Origin: a virus
Length of the DNA stretch: 64,000 bases
Reading direction: 5' to 3' (one strand)
Virus record (IMG/VR): IMGVR_UViG_3300025096_000004
Span: 127,496-191,495 of that record
The notes below the pieces were generated by a model. It did no database searches and had not been told where the DNA came from. It was given only the letters and a program-made list of their open reading frames with translations. Positions 1,880 to 63,640 of the stretch are shown here, piece after piece. The stretch's first letter is position 1. Every line of letters starts with the position of its first letter. The position numbers were made by a program, and so were the translations under genes.

Positions 1880-4800
1880 ATGGCAGGATTAACAACAACA
1901 ACAGTAGCGGCAGTCGCGGATGATGTCACATTTAAAGACGGCAATGGAAATGAAACATTGGTTCTTAAAGAAACAGCGTCCGCTGAAAACCATGTGCAAG
2001 TTCAAAATGCAGCAGATGGTAATGGCCCTACTATATCTGCCATTGGTGATGATACCAATGTTGATTTGAATGTCGCCGCCAAAGGTTCTGGTGTGGTTAA
2101 TGTTACCTCCGACATGAAAATCACCGGCACAACCCCAACTCTTACAGTTGGAGACGCAGGTGCCGAGGATACAATGATTGTATTCGATGGTAATGCTGCC
2201 GACTTCCGAATTGGTCTAGATGATGGTACAGATTCTCTTGAAATTGGAGCAGGCTCTGCACACGGAACAACTGCTGGACTTGTGATAAATTCTTCTGGTC
2301 AAGTTACTGGTATCGGAGATGATACTCCTTCAAATGAGCAAGTTTTAACTTGGACAACCTCTGGTACTGCACGAGCAGTATGGGCCACTGCCTCAACTGG
2401 CGGAGAAGCAGACTCTGTCGCTGCTGATAATATCTCCGATGGCAATGCTGCGGTAAACATTATTACAACTTCAGGCGATATCACAATTGATGCCCAAGCA
2501 AATGACGCAGACGTAATTATTAAAGTTGATGATGCCGGCTCTTCGGTAACAGCAGTAACATTTGATGGTAGCGACGAAGGTAACGCAATCTTTGTCAATG
2601 ACCTTAAGCTACAATCAGACGCTTCCGTAATTCACTTTGGTGCAAATGATGAAATTACAATGACGCATGTTCATAATAGCGGATTAACCATAACAAATAC
2701 AGTTAATGGGACAGATGACTCACCTGTCATTTTAACTTTAAAGTCTGAAGAAGATGCAATCGTTGCTGATGATGTAATTGGAACAATTAACTTTACAGCA
2801 GGCGATAGCGATGGAACAGATGGAGCGGCAATAGCTGCTTCAATTGAGGCTCTGGCCGAAGACACCTTCTCTGCTAGTGTCAATGAGACAAGTTTAATAT
2901 TTAAGACCGGTGCTTCGGAAGCAGCAGTCGAAAAAGCGAGATTGTGGTCTGACGGTATGCTTGAATTGACAGATTGTGTTTCTGTCGCCGGTGCTTTTGC
3001 TGCGATCCAAGGTGCTGGTAGTTATGGAGTTATGGATTATGCGAGTAACCATACTCGCATCATTTCAAGAGGTGCAAACGGCTCCACGTTGGGAGGAATA
3101 ACACTTGTTCAGGAAGCTAACGACGCCAGTCCAAGTCAAAACACCTTAGTCTTGGATACTTCTGGAAATGCAGCTTTTCTTGCTGACCTGTCCGTTGGTG
3201 ACGATCTTTCATTAGTATCCGATTCCGCCGTGCTCTCTTTCGGCGCAGGATCAGAGACCACGCTTACTCACACAAACGATGTAGGACTGGCTCTCCGCCA
3301 AACTGGCGCCAATGCAATACAATGGAAAATTTTGCAAAATAACGCGACCGATGGTTGGGGTTTTCATGCCGATAGCTCCGATGGCAAAATGAAGATTTCC
3401 CGTATCTCCGCAAGCCAAACTGGATTCTTTTCAGTCAGTAGCGAAGGCGCCGCAGAACTTGAGGGAGAGTCCGCCAGTCTGGTGATTGATAATGATGCGA
3501 CCGATGCCGACCCAATGGTCCAATTCGCCCTTAGTGGAACTGTTAAATGGTCTGTTGGTTGCGAGGATGGCGACTCCGATAAATTTGTTATTGAAAATGG
3601 TGCCGGTGCTCTGGGCGCTGCACCCGCATTAGAAATAGATTCTAGTTCAAATGTTACTGTAACCGGTGATGTTAACGTTGGAGACGATCTTACACTAACG
3701 TCTGATGCTTCTGTTTTAACTTTCGGAGCCGGCAGTGATGTAACTTTTACCCACGACAACGGAACAGGGATGGATATTACATCTGCTGGAAATTTAGATA
3801 TTGATTGTACTGCTGGTTCTATTACACTGGGCGCTTCCTTAGCAGACGGCCAGACACTTAAACTCGGAAAGAATGGAGCAGTTGAAACTATCATTGCTCC
3901 TCATGGAACGGCAGGTAGTGAACTCTATTCTGTAATCAACACATCAGGAGTTACCGATGGTACCGACGCCGCCGGCTCAATCTTACTCAGCGCGGTTGCT
4001 GGCGGAATTGGCCTTGCTTGGGCTGATACCAAAGACCTTTGGGCTGAAGGTGGCGCCATGTCGTTTGTTGCTAATGAGAATAGAGCTAATGCTATTCACC
4101 TCCATGCAGACGCTGGCGCAGATCAAACAATCTTATTGCAAAACGATGAAGGAACGGGTACCGGAGCCGATGATGGTTCTAGTGCTATTCAACTCCACTC
4201 AGGGGCTGGTGGTATAGGTATAACTTGCGCGGCTACAAAGAAGCTTTATATGGATGCCGGAACATTTACTTTGAAGACATCCCAAAATGATTCTGGTGCA
4301 ATCTTGCTTCATGCCGATGAAGGTACAGCACAGGTTATTAAACTTGTTAACGATGAAGGAAACACCGACGGAACCGCTGGTGCCGGAGCAATTGACATTG
4401 AAGCCACTGCTGGTGGAATAAGTCTTTTATGGGCAGACACCAAAGACCTGTGGGCCGAAGGCGGCCAAGCTATGATTGTTGCAAATCACAACACCGCCAA
4501 CGCCATCAAACTACATGCAGATGCTGGAGCCGCCCAAACCATTCAGATCCTTAACGATGAAGGTACAGTAGACGGAACCGCCGGAGCCGGAGCAATTGAT
4601 ATTGAAGCCACAGCCGGAGGCATGAGCCTCTTGTGGGCCGACACCAAAGACCTTTGGGCTGAAGGCGGAGCAATAATGCTTGTCGCCAATGAAAATAAAG
4701 CATCGGCCATTCAAATCCATGCTGATGCCGGCGCAAACCAAACGATTCAGATCATCAATGATGAAGGATCAGTTGAGGGAACTTACGGCTCTGGAGCAAT

Positions 4801-5707
4801 TGATATTGAAGCCACTGCTGGCGGAATAAGCCTCTTATGGAATGATGCAAAAGATCTTTGGGCTGAAGGTGGACAGTTTATTGTCACCGCCAATCATGAT
4901 ACTGCTGATTGTATTAAATTGCATGCTGATGCGGGAACATCTCAACAGATAACGGTTCTAAATGATGCAGGCACAAATGCCGCAGCAATTGGATTGACAG
5001 CCTCTGCTGGTGGTATTTCATTGACTTCTGCCGCCACCACTGCGACTGATGGTGTTACAATCACAGCATCCCAAACCACAAAAGATGCGGTTCAAATTAC
5101 AGCAAACTCACTTACAACCGCATACGGAATTGATATGGAGGCTGACGCTCTTACAACCGGTGGTCTTGCTCGTTTTGTTTCTAATGCAAGCAGTGATGAC
5201 AATCGTAGTCTTGTAACCATTGATGCAGAACATGCAAATTCTGATAATGTTGTGCCTCTTGATATTTCAAATGCATGTACTCATGCTGATGGAAATATTA
5301 TTGCTAGGTTCACTGGGCCTCTTGATGGGCTGAATGTAAAAACTAAGCAGGTAATACTAAATAGCGTCAACCACGGCTCGAATTTCTGGGTCGATGCGAG
5401 TAACTTCTTTCCTGCTGGGTGTACAGTTCTTGGTTTGACAGCAAAGGTAACAACGGTCATCCCCGCTTCTAAATATATTTCACAAATCGGCATCGTCCAA
5501 GGCGGAACGCCTGATCTAGATGCATTTGGCGTTTTTGCCAATGCTGCTACACTTGGTGCCGAGGACACCTCGGCCAAAATGGTTCCAAGAGTATTTCTAG
5601 ATCATTCCGCCCAAGCAGACCTAAGAATAACTTTTGATGGGAACCCCGGCGCCACATCTGGTGTAATTCGGGTTACGCTGTTTTACACGGACCAAGTTCC
5701 GGGATAA
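1880..5707 (+). CDS. long tail fibre / adhesin-like protein with tandem 68-aa repeats
   Basis: 1275 aa, A/G/T/D-rich beta-type composition, GGAGG RBS, shares a repeat module with the upstream fibre gene. Confidence 0.65.
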   Translation: MAGLTTTTVAAVADDVTFKDGNGNETLVLKETASAENHVQVQNAADGNGPTISAIGDDTNVDLNVAAKGSGVVNVTSDMKITGTTPTLTVGDAGAEDTMIVFDGNAADFRIGLDDGTDSLEIGAGSAHGTTAGLVINSSGQVTGIGDDTPSNEQVLTWTTSGTARAVWATASTGGEADSVAADNISDGNAAVNIITTSGDITIDAQANDADVIIKVDDAGSSVTAVTFDGSDEGNAIFVNDLKLQSDASVIHFGANDEITMTHVHNSGLTITNTVNGTDDSPVILTLKSEEDAIVADDVIGTINFTAGDSDGTDGAAIAASIEALAEDTFSASVNETSLIFKTGASEAAVEKARLWSDGMLELTDCVSVAGAFAAIQGAGSYGVMDYASNHTRIISRGANGSTLGGITLVQEANDASPSQNTLVLDTSGNAAFLADLSVGDDLSLVSDSAVLSFGAGSETTLTHTNDVGLALRQTGANAIQWKILQNNATDGWGFHADSSDGKMKISRISASQTGFFSVSSEGAAELEGESASLVIDNDATDADPMVQFALSGTVKWSVGCEDGDSDKFVIENGAGALGAAPALEIDSSSNVTVTGDVNVGDDLTLTSDASVLTFGAGSDVTFTHDNGTGMDITSAGNLDIDCTAGSITLGASLADGQTLKLGKNGAVETIIAPHGTAGSELYSVINTSGVTDGTDAAGSILLSAVAGGIGLAWADTKDLWAEGGAMSFVANENRANAIHLHADAGADQTILLQNDEGTGTGADDGSSAIQLHSGAGGIGITCAATKKLYMDAGTFTLKTSQNDSGAILLHADEGTAQVIKLVNDEGNTDGTAGAGAIDIEATAGGISLLWADTKDLWAEGGQAMIVANHNTANAIKLHADAGAAQTIQILNDEGTVDGTAGAGAIDIEATAGGMSLLWADTKDLWAEGGAIMLVANENKASAIQIHADAGANQTIQIINDEGSVEGTYGSGAIDIEATAGGISLLWNDAKDLWAEGGQFIVTANHDTADCIKLHADAGTSQQITVLNDAGTNAAAIGLTASAGGISLTSAATTATDGVTITASQTTKDAVQITANSLTTAYGIDMEADALTTGGLARFVSNASSDDNRSLVTIDAEHANSDNVVPLDISNACTHADGNIIARFTGPLDGLNVKTKQVILNSVNHGSNFWVDASNFFPAGCTVLGLTAKVTTVIPASKYISQIGIVQGGTPDLDAFGVFANAATLGAEDTSAKMVPRVFLDHSAQADLRITFDGNPGATSGVIRVTLFYTDQVPG
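3960..4980 (+). repeat. in-frame 204-nt (68-aa) tandem repeats, about 4 full units plus a partial
   Basis: AA(C/T)GATGAAGG at 4349, 4553 and 4757 (204-nt spacing). Unit is AIDIEATAGGISLLWADTKDLWAEGG...HADAG...NDEG. Confidence 0.9.
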
Positions 5708-35029: not shown

Positions 35030-35513
35030 CAAAGAGCCAAGCACTTTTACAACAGTGTTTCCATATACTGATCGCTTTTCAGTCATGGCATCATCAGATA
35101 ATGATGTGAAGATATCACACAAGCACTCGATCATTGGCAAATCCAACAAAGCAGGTAAAGCCTATGTCGGTGATCAGGTACTTGTTGTAGGACACAAAAA
35201 AGAAGGCGTTCATGTGTTTGCAGCAGAGGTTGGCAAATGGGTGTCCGATGATCGAAAGAATGTCTGGTATAATCAAGGTGGAAATTTGTGGGATTTCAAT
35301 TATGAAATATCATCCAAGACTAATCAAGTATTCATGACTTGGGATGAAATTAAACAAATCACCGGCGCGGAAGAAGATCTTGATATAAAGCGAATTTTTC
35401 TAGATCGCTATAGGCCAAAAAATTTCGGGACGAAAATTTCCAAACTTGGAAAATATAGAGATAAACTATTTACACATTTAAGTAAAAATAACTTGACAAA
35501 TGATAACCAATAG
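35022..35513 (+). CDS. hypothetical protein, possibly EVE/PUA-like
   Basis: ATG 35022 with GGAGG RBS overlaps the GHKL stop. The fold guess comes from the beta/aromatic pattern only. Confidence 0.45.
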   Translation: MYSKEPSTFTTVFPYTDRFSVMASSDNDVKISHKHSIIGKSNKAGKAYVGDQVLVVGHKKEGVHVFAAEVGKWVSDDRKNVWYNQGGNLWDFNYEISSKTNQVFMTWDEIKQITGAEEDLDIKRIFLDRYRPKNFGTKISKLGKYRDKLFTHLSKNNLTNDNQ

Positions 35514-35521
35514 GTTATAAT
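35493..35521 (+). promoter_or_regulatory. sigma70-type promoter
   Basis: TTGACA-17-TATAAT; an ACTATTTA copy also lies at 35465. Confidence 0.85.
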
Positions 35522-35606
35522 ATATAAGACAGCAAAGAGTGAGATTATACTTTTTGACTTTAGGGTGAATCCCCAAAATGACCATAAACTATAAGGAGAT
35601 AACAAT

Positions 35607-36371
35607 ATGGCTTTAAATTTAGATGCAATGCGAGCGAAGCTCGAACTTTCCCGCAACGGCGGAAGAAAACAAGATAATACAAAATGGCGTCCGCAAGAGG
35701 GCGACCAAACCATTCGTATTTTGCCCACTTCTGATGGAGATCCTTTCAAGGAATTTCATTTTCATTATAACGTGGGACGAAACCCCGGTATTCTTTGTGA
35801 AAAGCGAACTCACGGCGGTGAATGTCCAATCTGTGATTTCGCATCACAACTGTGGCGAGATGGTGTGGATAACAATGATGACCGGGCAAAACGCGAAGCA
35901 AAAAAGCTTTTCGCTCGGAAACGTTATTTTTCGCCAATTTTGGTTCGTGGACAAGAATCACAAGGAGTAAAGGTTTGGTCTTATGGCAAGACTGCTTACG
36001 AAATGCTTCTTGGGTATGTTCTTGACCCGGATTATGGGGATATTACTGATCCCGAAACTGGAACAGATATTGTTCTGAATTATTCAGTCCCCGGCACCCC
36101 CGGATCTTTTCCAAAAACTCAATTAAAACCAAGGCGTAGACCATCGGCTCTTTGTGATGATATGGTGGCTGACTGCTCTCAATTGCTTGACAGCATTCCA
36201 GATATCGAATCTCTTTTTGAAAGAAAAGCCAAAACAGAGGTTCAAGCCATTCTGGATGAGTATCTGTCAACTGATACTTCCTCCGAATCAACCTCTACCG
36301 AGACGCAGAAATACAACACTACGTCATCGTCAAAAGTTGATAAAGCATTCCAAGAATTAATGGGCGCTTAG
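35607..36371 (+). CDS. single-stranded DNA-binding protein, T4 gp32-like
   Basis: TIRILP, FHFHY, CPICD, VKVWSYGKT and DITDPETGTD motifs. Confidence 0.85.
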   Translation: MALNLDAMRAKLELSRNGGRKQDNTKWRPQEGDQTIRILPTSDGDPFKEFHFHYNVGRNPGILCEKRTHGGECPICDFASQLWRDGVDNNDDRAKREAKKLFARKRYFSPILVRGQESQGVKVWSYGKTAYEMLLGYVLDPDYGDITDPETGTDIVLNYSVPGTPGSFPKTQLKPRRRPSALCDDMVADCSQLLDSIPDIESLFERKAKTEVQAILDEYLSTDTSSESTSTETQKYNTTSSSKVDKAFQELMGA

Positions 36372-36380
36372 TTTTAATTG

Positions 36381-36414
36381 GACCGCAGGAAGGCATGGGT
36401 TTACAGATGCCTTA
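36381..36414 (+). ncRNA. conserved intergenic RNA motif copy 1 (predicted H-type pseudoknot)
   Basis: GACCGCAGGAAGGCATGGGTTTACAGATGCCTTA; near-identical copy at 36871. Confidence 0.6.
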
Positions 36415-36435
36415 TTTAAATATTCGGAGGATAAT

Positions 36436-36864
36436 ATGAGTGTAAATAAAGGACAGAAAGTCGCTGTTCACTATGTGGGAACATTAGATGATGGCACTGA
36501 GTTCGACAATTCTAGAACAAGAGGCGAACCCTTAAAATTTGAATTTGGAGCCGCCACCATCATGCCAGCATTTCAAGATGCTATTTCAGAAATGAATATC
36601 GGCGAGATTAAAAAAATAGAAGTTGAACCAGATCAAGCTTATGGGCCAATAAATCCCGATGCCTATACGGTTGTGCCGCTTCAAAATTTTAAAACGCCTG
36701 AAGATCTGGTTGTTGGATCTATTGTCCATGGCCAAAACGCATCAGGGCAACGCTTTGCTGCTAAAATCGATGAAATAAGTCAAGACAGCGTTAAGTTGGA
36801 TTTTAATCACCCGATGGCCGGCAAGAAGTTGAGTTTTGAAATTGAACTTATAAGCGCGAGTTAG
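36436..36864 (+). CDS. FKBP-type peptidyl-prolyl isomerase (SlyD/FkpB-like)
   Basis: VAVHYVGTLDDGTEFDNS, PDQAYG and DFNHPMAGKKLSFEIEL motifs. Confidence 0.95.
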   Translation: MSVNKGQKVAVHYVGTLDDGTEFDNSRTRGEPLKFEFGAATIMPAFQDAISEMNIGEIKKIEVEPDQAYGPINPDAYTVVPLQNFKTPEDLVVGSIVHGQNASGQRFAAKIDEISQDSVKLDFNHPMAGKKLSFEIELISAS

Positions 36865-36870
36865 GTCCAA

Positions 36871-36903
36871 AACCGCAGGGAGGCATGGGTTACAGATGCC
36901 TTA
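36871..36903 (+). ncRNA. conserved intergenic RNA motif copy 2
   Basis: AACCGCAGGGAGGCATGGGTTACAGATGCCTTA. Confidence 0.6.
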
Positions 36904-36925
36904 ATTTTAAATGAATGGAGCAAAC

Positions 36926-37165
36926 ATGGCTGGTAAAAAAAAGATTCCTGCCCAAAGGGCAATTGAGTTGTCTGCTATTATGGCAGGCTGCACTTTATTG
37001 GAAGTTAACGAGATGTTAAAAACAGCAGGATTTCCAGATATGAATGAGACTTCCTATACAATGGTTAAAAAACAATATATCCCCTTTTTAAGGTCTGCGG
37101 GAGATAAATATATCAAAGAGCATTTGTATAGCCCCCGCAGACTTAATCAATTAAAAGGAGAATAA
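36926..37165 (+). CDS. hypothetical protein
   Basis: ATG 36926 preceded by GGAG. Confidence 0.6.
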   Translation: MAGKKKIPAQRAIELSAIMAGCTLLEVNEMLKTAGFPDMNETSYTMVKKQYIPFLRSAGDKYIKEHLYSPRRLNQLKGE

Positions 37166-37168
37166 AAA

Positions 37169-37489
37169 ATGATTATTAATCTAAACGATGAAACATTTGA
37201 AGAATCAACTTCATCGGGCATCACTTTAGTTGACTTTTATGCAGATTGGTGTCAACCGTGCATAAGAATGATGCCAAAAGTCGAATCAGTAGCCTCTAAG
37301 CTTGGCGAAGATATAACCGTTGCAAAAGTTAATGTTGATGAAGCTCGAAATACTGCTGCCAAATTTGGTGTGCGAAGTATTCCAACTTTTGCTCTAATTA
37401 AAGATGGAAAGGTTCTTCGTATCTCTGCTGGTTCCAAGAGCGAACAAGATTTACTTTTGTTTGCTGAATCTTACAACAGAGGTGTATAA
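37169..37489 (+). CDS. trxA: thioredoxin
   Basis: VDFYADWCQPC and FGVRSIPT motifs. Confidence 0.95.
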   Translation: MIINLNDETFEESTSSGITLVDFYADWCQPCIRMMPKVESVASKLGEDITVAKVNVDEARNTAAKFGVRSIPTFALIKDGKVLRISAGSKSEQDLLLFAESYNRGV

Positions 37490-38608
37490 TTGGGAAAGGT
37501 AGTACAAATGAAGAAAAAACCGGGAAAAATGGATCTTGAAGCAATCAAAAAGCGAATCAATAAAACGACTGGCATGAATGTTGCTCACGATCTAACGAAA
37601 GATAATCCCACTGAAGTTAAACAGTGGATTCCGACTGGCTCCCGTTGGTTGGATTCGATTATCTGTAGGGGCAAGATGGCTGGCATCCCCGTTGGTAAAA
37701 TAACAGAAATAGCTGGTCTGCCAGCTACAGGCAAGTCTTTTATGGCTGCGCAGGTAGCAGGTAATGCACAAAAAATGGATATGCAAGTAGTCTATTTTGA
37801 TTCTGAATCTTCACTCGATCCAGCTTTTTTGAGAAGAGCCGGCTGTGAATTGAGCACACTAATGTATGTTCAGGCCGTTTCGGTTGAGAAAGTTTTGGAA
37901 ACAATTGAGGATTTGATGTCAGCAAGCTCAGAAACACAATGGTTGTTTATCTGGGATTCCATTGCAAATACAGCATGCGAAACAGATATTGAAGGCGACT
38001 TCAATCCCCTGTCAAGTATGGCAGTCAAGGCACGGACCATGGGTAAAGCTTTTCGAAAGTTAACTATTCCTTTGGCCAATCAACAATCAACGCTAATTTT
38101 AATTAATCAGTTGAAAACCAATATTACGAGAAGTATCGCAGAGGCTATGACCACCCCCTTTGTAGCCCCCGGCGGCAAAGCAATTGAATATAATTGCTCT
38201 CTCAGGGTTTGGCTTACTAAACGGAAAGCTAAAAATGCATTCACTACGGATAATAGTGGATTTCGAATTGGCTCTGAAGTTAAAGTTAAATTAGAGAAAT
38301 CTCGTTTTGGTACTGAAGGCCGCAGAGCAACTTTTCAAATTCTCTGGGGCTCTGACGTCGGAATTCAAGATGAAGAAAGCTGGTTTACAGCATTGAAATT
38401 GTCTGGAACCGATAAGTTAAAACAGGCCGGCGGTTGGTATACTCTGATTGACAAAAAGGGCTATGAACATAAGTTCCAAGTCTCTAAGTGGGTGGAAAAG
38501 CTAAAAGACAAGAATTTCCGCCAATTGGTATATGATTTGATGGATGAGGTTATCATTCATCGCTTTGACAAAACGGCAAATGAGATAGATTTGGGCGACG
38601 AAGAATAA
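37490..38608 (+). CDS. recA: RecA/UvsX recombinase
   Basis: IPTGS..LD, Walker A GLPATGKS, FDSE, IWDS, LINQL and PGGKA motifs. Confidence 0.9.
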   Translation: MGKVVQMKKKPGKMDLEAIKKRINKTTGMNVAHDLTKDNPTEVKQWIPTGSRWLDSIICRGKMAGIPVGKITEIAGLPATGKSFMAAQVAGNAQKMDMQVVYFDSESSLDPAFLRRAGCELSTLMYVQAVSVEKVLETIEDLMSASSETQWLFIWDSIANTACETDIEGDFNPLSSMAVKARTMGKAFRKLTIPLANQQSTLILINQLKTNITRSIAEAMTTPFVAPGGKAIEYNCSLRVWLTKRKAKNAFTTDNSGFRIGSEVKVKLEKSRFGTEGRRATFQILWGSDVGIQDEESWFTALKLSGTDKLKQAGGWYTLIDKKGYEHKFQVSKWVEKLKDKNFRQLVYDLMDEVIIHRFDKTANEIDLGDEE

Positions 38609-38620
38609 AAATAAAATTAC

Positions 38621-38649
38621 TTGACAAACCACTTCCTCCGTGTTATATT
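38621..38649 (+). promoter_or_regulatory. sigma70-type promoter
   Basis: TTGACA-17-TATATT. Confidence 0.85.
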
Positions 38650-38668
38650 ATAGCATGGAGGTTTTTTT

Positions 38669-63305: not shown

Positions 63306-63640
63306 GGGGGCGTAATGGTTTCGACAGGGTAGAACTCGGAGGACGAGTGCAGGTAGGTAAGATACAACCTTAAAAGTTCAATTGCAATAACTGCAAACAA
63401 TAATTATTATTTCGAACAAGCCTTAGCTGCTTAATCGGGTGGCCGTCCCGAGCCATCTAACCAAGAGGGACAAAACAACAGACAAGTTGTAAAAATCAAA
63501 CAACTCGGTGCAATAGGACAGTAAGCATCGTTTCACAACTGTCTACCTTTGTTAGTTTGTGATAGTAAACTAACTAAACCTGTGAATGACTCTATTCTAA
63601 GCTACTGTGGACGAGGGTTCGACTCCCTCCGCCTCCACCA
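63306..63640 (+). ncRNA. ssrA: tmRNA (one-piece)
   Basis: 5' GGGGGCGTAATGGTTTCGAC; 3' GAGGG-TTCGACT-CCCTC-CGCCTCC-A-CCA; G3-U acceptor pair; tag ORF 63393..63434 ANNNYYFEQALAA*. Confidence 0.97.

Follow-up and report, generated by a model that had tools for sequence, protein, structure and literature searches.

Why should a phage genome carry two near-identical copies of a short element, one on either side of a PPIase gene and both downstream of the gene for its gp32-like SSB? The window analysed here comprises 64,000 nucleotides and forms the final 64 kb of an IMG/VR virus record of 191,495 bp that CheckV rates as complete. A first-pass annotation of its letters had proposed that the two elements, each lying between a stop codon and the next RBS, fold as H-type pseudoknots, that they act as a cis-regulatory RNA rather than as terminators, and that they could also explain how the PPIase gene was inserted as a cassette.

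The genes concerned are all on the + strand. A sigma-70-type promoter (TTGACA-17-TATAAT, 12/12, positions 35493 to 35521 in a promoter scan) precedes the structured 5' leader of the SSB mRNA (35527-35606) and the gp32-like SSB gene itself (254 aa, 35607-36371; Pfam PF08804 gp32, E = 6.9e-18), whose TAG stop occupies 36369-36371. There follow copy 1 of the element (36382-36413) with its A/U-rich tail (36414-36435; AUUUAAAUAUU), in which the PPIase SD GGAGG lies at 36426-36430; the FKBP-type PPIase gene (142 aa, 36436-36864; PF00254, E = 6.1e-20), which is the cargo flanked by both copies; copy 2 (36872-36902) with its A/U-rich tail (36903-36925; AAUUUUAAAUGAAU), which has an RNWUU match at +1 and then an SD UGGAG; and a small ORF without family match (36926-37165; 79 aa from the SD-preceded ATG at 36926, or 84 aa if from 36911). 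The operon continues with a thioredoxin gene (37169-37489; PF00085, E = 3e-25) and ends with a RecA/UvsX-like recombinase gene that has a TTG start (37490-38608; PF00154, E = 1.5e-37). At the operon end a terminator scan marked a terminator-like site (38635-38661), a 12-bp hairpin followed by U7, and this hairpin overlaps the -35/-10 of the next promoter (38621-38649), that of a 5'-3' exonuclease gene. The promoter scan gave no promoter-like site (-35/-10 pair) in or beside either copy and no further high-scoring + strand promoter between the SSB promoter and 38621, so that the genes downstream of SSB depend on read-through of both elements. Elsewhere in the window we noted near-identical sigma-70-type promoters recurring on the + strand between 31343 and 61179 (TTGACA-N17-TATATT with an extended TG), tandem repeats of 204 nt at 4298-4909, and a phage-encoded tmRNA gene at 63306-63640 (Rfam RF00023, 114 bits) with the tag peptide ANNNYYFEQALAA.

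Both elements lie where the first-pass annotation had placed them, each with a TAG stop before it and the SD/ATG of the next gene after it. Copy 1, in the SSB-PPIase spacer, has the TAG stop 10 nt upstream and the ATG 22 nt downstream, and copy 2, in the PPIase-ORF spacer, has its TAG stop 7 nt upstream and the ATG at 36926 23 nt downstream. In copy 1, stem 1 pairs A36382-C36384 with G36398-U36400 and stem 2 pairs AAGGCAU (36390-36396) with AUGCCUU (36407-36413), the loops being GCAGG (L1, 36385-36389), G36397 (L2) and UUACAG (L3, 36401-36406). In copy 2, stem 1 pairs 36872-36874 with 36888-36890 and stem 2 pairs GAGGCAU (36880-36886) with AUGCCUU (36896-36902), with G36880-U36902 as an outer wobble pair; its loops are GCAGG (L1, 36875-36879), G36887 (L2) and UACAG (L3, 36891-36895). 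A 20-nt core has two matches in the window, a number reached in 0 of 100 shuffles, and a covariance model run over the whole 191,495-bp genome returned exactly two matches, copy 1 (36379-36417, 60.8 bits) and copy 2 (36869-36906, about 57.7 bits), the next best scoring 8.8 bits. Folded as single sequences, the copies form the hairpin only, at -8.5 to -10.7 kcal/mol with z about 0; as this thermodynamic signal is nil, the case for the pseudoknot rests on comparative data.

At least 118 IMG/VR contigs contain an exact match to the 17-nt core GCAGGRAGGCATGGGTT. An alignment of 97 distinct copies gave a model, R1, which was built with the hairpin only, stem 1 being left out, and was used to search 197 fetched loci; the combined alignment, A6, contains 146 matches, corresponding to a family of 144 distinct copies in IMG/VR contigs. 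The consensus reads N-C-C / R-C-A-G-G / G-A-G-G-C-A-U / G / G-G-N / U-(U)-A-N-A-G / A-U-G-C-C-U-C / A. Unusual arrangements were noted at L092:586-663, L085:7510-7572, L099:3286-3347, L196:5148-5209 and L003:794-854; they include a direct tandem of two element copies with compensatory stem differences (L092) and variants with an extra hairpin inserted in loop 3.

The comparison with Rfam that the first-pass annotation had suggested as a check left the element without a family: with Rfam 15, the 64-kb window yielded only the tmRNA at the gathering score, and at E<=10 no match in 36300-36980 overlapped the pseudoknot cores, one weak match (12.2 bits, E = 6) beginning at the last stem base of copy 2. 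Among 50,697 records of cultured phages, blastn with the element found no match. In 596 Gb of cellular genomes, one true element was present among the first 120 pattern matches listed, the others being chance matches; this copy (L257) is on contig PBIO01000016.1 of a MAG labelled Halobacteriovorax; the contig probably belongs to a phage and was binned together with the MAG, or it possibly gives a clue to the host. Judged by SSB and RecA, the nearest relative in culture is Microcystis phage Mel-JY01 (31-34% identity), where a gap of 8 nt, lacking the element, separates the two genes. The element is scarce in each genome, with two copies in that of the window (G000) and 0-2 in each of eleven large relatives. 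Among the complete relatives, G003-G005 and G007 have it and G001 and G002 do not. A catalogue of structured RNAs from IMG/VR counts 10,006 unnamed candidates and highlights 12 motifs upstream of GP32 genes (PMC10690425); the element may already be one of these anonymous candidates.

Is the pseudoknot real? In A6, 98.8% of cells pair in the structure given above, with double-sided changes at 6 of the 10 pairs (55 cells); none of 500 shuffles reached any of five covariation measures, and shifting the partners by 1-3 columns lowered pairing to 32-52%. Within stem 2, pair 1 changes from G-C to A-U, pair 2 from A-U to G-C, pair 4 from G-C via G-U (34 copies) to A-U, and pair 7 from U-A to C-G in 21 copies. 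The outer pair of stem 1 is found as A-U (96 copies), C-G, U-A, G-C, G-U and U-G, and the C5-G pair is flipped to G-C in one A6 copy and in two more divergent copies. Covariation in A6 covers the stem-2 hairpin plus one pair of the short stem 1, and as stem 1 had been left out of the model, its alignment was not fitted to it. Both window copies follow the family rules, copy 1 having the A-U form of the outer stem-2 pair and copy 2 the G-U intermediate. The reading of the two elements as an a-b-a'-b' H-type pseudoknot is therefore borne out by compensatory changes in both stems across the family, including the covariation in stem 1 among homologs on which that reading had been made to depend. 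The four-base-pair stem 1 proposed at first stands in part: three pairs (N-C-C with G-G-N) are supported by covariation, but the fourth (G36381 or A36871 with U) is possible in just 88 of 145 copies and has an invariant 3' partner, for which reasons we rejected it.

The three central pairs of stem 2 and both loops are nearly constant in A6, which, if other compact pseudoknots are a guide, may reflect tertiary contacts or a bound partner. As for the strand, 190 of 196 copies have an upstream ORF on the same strand, most of these ending within about 15 nt, and all copies are co-oriented with the flanking ORFs. Read from the opposite strand, the 34 G-U wobbles at one stem-2 pair would become C-A mismatches, and together with the constant strand agreement these wobbles place the structure in the transcript. 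A peptide-coding reading was rejected, since 1-nt indels in loop 3 are common and the changes track pairing, not codons. These comparisons indicate that the fold is maintained by selection at the RNA level and that the element is a genuine 33-base pseudoknot, absent from Rfam and kept by an uncultured marine phage lineage. The earlier observation is correct, and it is more general than a single window could show.

What, then, would such an RNA do? Its location is strongly biased: 143 of 196 matches have SSB upstream and RecA downstream, all on one strand, and 30 more adjoin one of these genes (about 88%). The upstream gene is most often SSB (81 of 190), followed by the FKBP PPIase (19) and a GmrSD_N-like protein (14); the downstream gene is RecA (42), FKBP (29), DUF7695 (13) or thioredoxin (8), and then many small unknown ORFs. 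No capsid or tail gene was found upstream of the element among ten upstream-gene representatives (PHROGs) or those tested with Pfam. With the upstream genes grouped into 42 independent clusters, the median distance between stop codon and stem 1 is 5-9 nt in 25 of them; on the other side, most of the 127 copies that have a start codon nearby show it 19-32 nt beyond stem 2. Two further candidates were tried and rejected. An enclosing anti-SD/SD helix around the knot was no more stable for real pairs (-3.18 kcal/mol) than for permuted ones (-3.30 kcal/mol), and a recoding pseudoknot (frameshift or read-through) would lack an open extension frame past the stop: SSB ends in TAG TTT TAA, and in 115 copies the median distance to the next stop is 17-20 codons in all three frames, with no frame preference.

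Much of this geography would suit a translational operator worked by SSB, which would nucleate at the knot and spread 3' over the A/U tract and the next SD, repressing PPIase, cargo and RecA once SSB exceeds the available ssDNA. A G-poor A/U tract does follow the knot, the start codon is mostly at the distance just given, the great majority of copies are in the SSB-RecA region, and their small number and strict sequence conservation suggest a specific trans factor. We nevertheless regard both this operator and the repression that it would exert as unlikely. No gene start is found within 45 nt in 27 of 154 distinct copies, some of which stand directly before promoters or tRNA genes, and an RBS is missing downstream in about 15% of copies; the same cargo genes and RecA are present in element-free relatives; the lattice would have room for 3-4 SSB monomers only; and the leader of SSB itself has another conserved fold that does not resemble the element, whose own slot is filled in relatives by sequence-variable knots described below. 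Of the original proposal of a cis-regulatory RNA, the tie between the pseudoknot and the gp32-like SSB gene is supported, but several copies have no RBS to control.

The leader of SSB (35527-35606) is conserved in relatives and consists of a 5' hairpin, an invariant GAC(C/U)UUAG (GACUUUAG in the window), a second hairpin (35564-35575, GGGUGAAUCCCC), both hairpins covarying, and an A-rich tract of about 30 nt reaching up to the SD. This leader is a candidate for gp32-type autoregulation, and is unrelated to the element, R1 giving no match there.

The sequence that follows the knot bears on a second class of explanations. The first-pass annotation had excluded terminators for want of a U-tract, a view that fails at the family level: the tail base +1 is A in 86% of copies, and at positions +3 to +8 U accounts for 54-75% and G for 1-3%. 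The longest U run in the tail is at least 4 in 75 of 156 copies; the window tails have U3 and U4 runs only, offset 1-2 nt from the stem. In at least 8 distinct copies the U-rich tail is directly followed by a TTGACA/TATAAT promoter without another terminator, and three copies are 4-22 nt upstream of tRNA genes. Internal copies and those lacking a gene start within 45 nt do not differ in the length of their U runs (p = 0.28). Stem 2 has 7 bp, with 3-4 G-C pairs in the two window copies and 4 in the consensus, and a simple terminator scan did not flag it. The hairpin is weak, with a loop of 9-10 nt, and the U-rich tract begins 2 nt past the stem, which counts against an end-forming role. The tail also contains the motif RNWUU exactly at +1 in 42% of copies, as against 1-15% at other offsets, and RNWUU is the RNase E core motif (PMC5222698).

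This enrichment directly 3' of the knot, the strongly conserved unpaired nucleotides and the intercistronic site, which is also found before tRNA genes, could point to a strict processing signal, either a new self-cleaving ribozyme or a structure recognised by an endonuclease, that would split the polycistronic mRNA. We consider it quite improbable that this is the whole function: no Rfam ribozyme family matches the element, all classes of self-cleaving ribozyme known to us are larger than 33 nt, and, if the nuclease were RNase E, the proposal would overlap with the explanation that we prefer. Equally doubtful is a small ligand riboswitch, an aptamer built into a terminator-like hairpin that would tune read-through into the recombinase operon. 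Its attraction is that about 33 nt with invariant loops and central pairs and covarying outer pairs resemble the smallest pseudoknot aptamers, that a U-rich tail follows the 3' stem, and that some members have a variable loop-3 hairpin. There is, however, no Rfam family match even at E<=10, the downstream genes are heterogeneous (RecA, FKBP, DUF7695, thioredoxin, tRNAs, promoters) and suggest no common metabolite, and presence is patchy among close relatives.

The same slot in relatives is informative. Relatives provided 71 distinct regions downstream of SSB, and in 54 of them the SSB stop is followed by a GC-rich, large-looped hairpin with a T4-8 tail. In 40 of these 54 hairpins the 4-7 nt just 5' can pair with the 5' part of the loop, which gives the a-b-a'-b' topology. 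These folds, which we call class 2, thus share the topology of the element, with very different and variable sequences, and have no Rfam match. They comprise a GC-rich hairpin of 5-8 bp with a loop of 8-28 nt, often after a conserved GUAGUCCUCCUGUGUUG; examples are L031:3760-3850, L038:1718-1800, L016, L009 and L058, with about 50 other SSB loci. In L006, L007, L049, L050 and L051 the class-2 loop contains TATAAATA, the T4 late-promoter consensus; a transcript initiated at this site would be without the hairpin's 5' arm and could extend into RecA. The post-SSB slot is occupied by the element alone in the window and in L004/L005, and at seven loci a class-2 fold and the element stand in tandem. 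Scanning the window's own genome for generic pseudoknotted terminators returned noise only.

The neighbourhood of the PPIase gene raises the question of exchange. Across 125 distinct SSB-RecA intervals, a sample biased by the fact that 117 loci were fetched via the element itself, we counted 0-6 cargo ORFs and 0-3 element copies, the copies never exceeding cargo plus one. The order SSB-element-RecA, without cargo, was found in 14 instances and SSB-element-FKBP in 23, and 28 of 39 PPIase homologues have the element upstream and 16 of 39 on both sides. The idea that the PPIase gene arrived as a cassette is in line with these data: the single-copy relatives lacking the PPIase gene that it led one to look for do exist, as the 14 cargo-free intervals, and the copy number obeys the limit of cargo plus one. 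The duplication in the window is consistent with a cargo gene having been inserted or exchanged at the element. That the element is nothing but a DNA-level recombination joint, resembling PeSL repeats and devoid of RNA function, is most improbable. Copies do bracket variable cargo within that limit, and the two copies of L004 have private changes in common, suggesting gene conversion; but both stems are kept by compensatory changes, strand-specific G-U pairs are frequent, cargo-free single copies exist, and a recombination site would need no pseudoknot.

Overall, we tentatively favour the view that the element is a gene-end and junction module, that is, a leaky terminator, a barrier based on cleavage and exonuclease arrest, or both, which in addition provides homology for cassette exchange. 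It would be transcribed within the SSB-to-RecA polycistronic mRNA and fold as a compact H-type pseudoknot, of which the stem-2 hairpin and the U-rich tail would set the 3' boundary of the upstream message, through leaky intrinsic termination and/or RNase-E-type cleavage of the tail; following such cleavage the knot would block 3' exonucleases. The abundant SSB message, and next the PPIase message, would thereby outlast or outnumber the downstream RecA part. With the knot 5-10 nt past the stop codon, a terminating ribosome would melt stem 1, which would couple the module to translation of the upstream gene. At the DNA level, the 33 conserved bases would be the sole shared sequence in the spacers and would offer homology for swapping cargo genes in and out, a process that may have left one copy on either side of the PPIase gene.

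The gene-end module is favoured because the slot is common with the terminator-like folds of relatives, because copies before promoters or tRNA genes have no RBS to control, and because the tail is U-rich and RNWUU-like and the element hugs the upstream stop codon. On these grounds end formation, protection and cassette exchange appear more likely than SSB-nucleated repression. Since none of the PPIase, thioredoxin and RecA genes has its own promoter, termination must be leaky, and given the weak hairpin, the offset U-tract and the conserved loops, the post-cut exonuclease barrier or a specific partner may matter more. Against a plain terminator, the tandem with a terminator-like class-2 fold in seven relatives looks redundant, and a generic end signal leaves the near-invariant loops and central pairs unexplained, given 0-2 copies in 12 genomes or large records. 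In a second, rather less probable view, the element would be a post-transcriptional sensor setting RecA and cargo expression, through SSB docking or as a terminator-embedded aptamer for a ligand or specific factor. If this were so, the strict conservation would reflect a specific binding pocket, and the SSB version would be an ssDNA-sensing regulon extending the T4 gene 32 principle downstream.

More than 140 distinct natural variants already map both stems of a structured RNA that is absent from the catalogues searched, and that sits at the joint between two proteins competing for single-stranded DNA in phage replication and recombination. Should the gene-end module be correct, phages would use compact pseudoknots, and not hairpins alone, to set the relative output of operon genes, and one sequence would serve both a regulatory RNA and gene-cassette exchange. 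Should a factor bind the element, it would be a small portable regulatory part and a second case of SSB-linked RNA control, outside the T-even phages. A length of 33 nt makes it easy to probe, mutate and test in reporters.

Among known systems, the translational operator pseudoknot of T-even (T2/T4) gene 32 is the first to be compared (PMC3014915, PMC535899); in T4, gp32 binds to a pseudoknot in the leader and extends from it along an A+U-rich stretch that includes the RBS (PMC3014915). Common to both are a small H-type knot in a spacer of a phage replication/recombination operon, a link to a gp32-family SSB and, in most copies here, an unstructured A/U-rich tract after the knot that overlaps the RBS. 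The T-even knot, however, is in the SSB leader, whereas the element is 3' of the SSB stop and before other genes; its stem 1 has only 3 bp, its loop 1 is 5 nt and conserved, and some copies have no RBS. Homology is not apparent, R1 with filters off giving 4.5 bits at best in T4 145000-149000. T4 gene 32 has a canonical terminator downstream, and an RNase E site near its stop codon, for which there is a parallel in rpsO with a stop-proximal RNase E site and a hairpin (PMC3014915).

As to the smallest pseudoknot riboswitch aptamers, the element has in common with them an H-type fold of 30-45 nt, conserved loop nucleotides and U-rich sequence past the 3' stem. This group includes preQ1-I, guanidine-III and SAM/SAH, and the HMP-PP aptamer is embedded in a terminator. 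The element differs in that it matches no Rfam family, that the genes it might regulate form no coherent set and that no ligand suggests itself.

With intrinsic terminators and 3' stabiliser hairpins, the element shares the post-stop site, a hairpin followed by a U-rich tract and the slot that relatives fill with terminator-like folds; some copies close a transcription unit, most being operon-internal without a downstream promoter. It departs from them in its weak 7-bp stem, whose 9-10 nt loop is tied into a pseudoknot, in the 2-nt offset of its U-tract, in its strictly conserved sequence and in its number, 0-3 copies per genome and not one per operon. Lastly, the PeSL (promoter-early stem-loop) elements, which Arbiol et al. 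reportedly described in 2010 as mobile regulatory cassettes of T4-type phages, resemble it in that a short conserved stem-loop repeat brackets variable small genes at places where relatives differ (0-6 cargo ORFs here). The PeSL repeat carries an early promoter, which the element does not, and is found in hyperplastic early regions, whereas the element is a pseudoknot kept by covariation within one operon.
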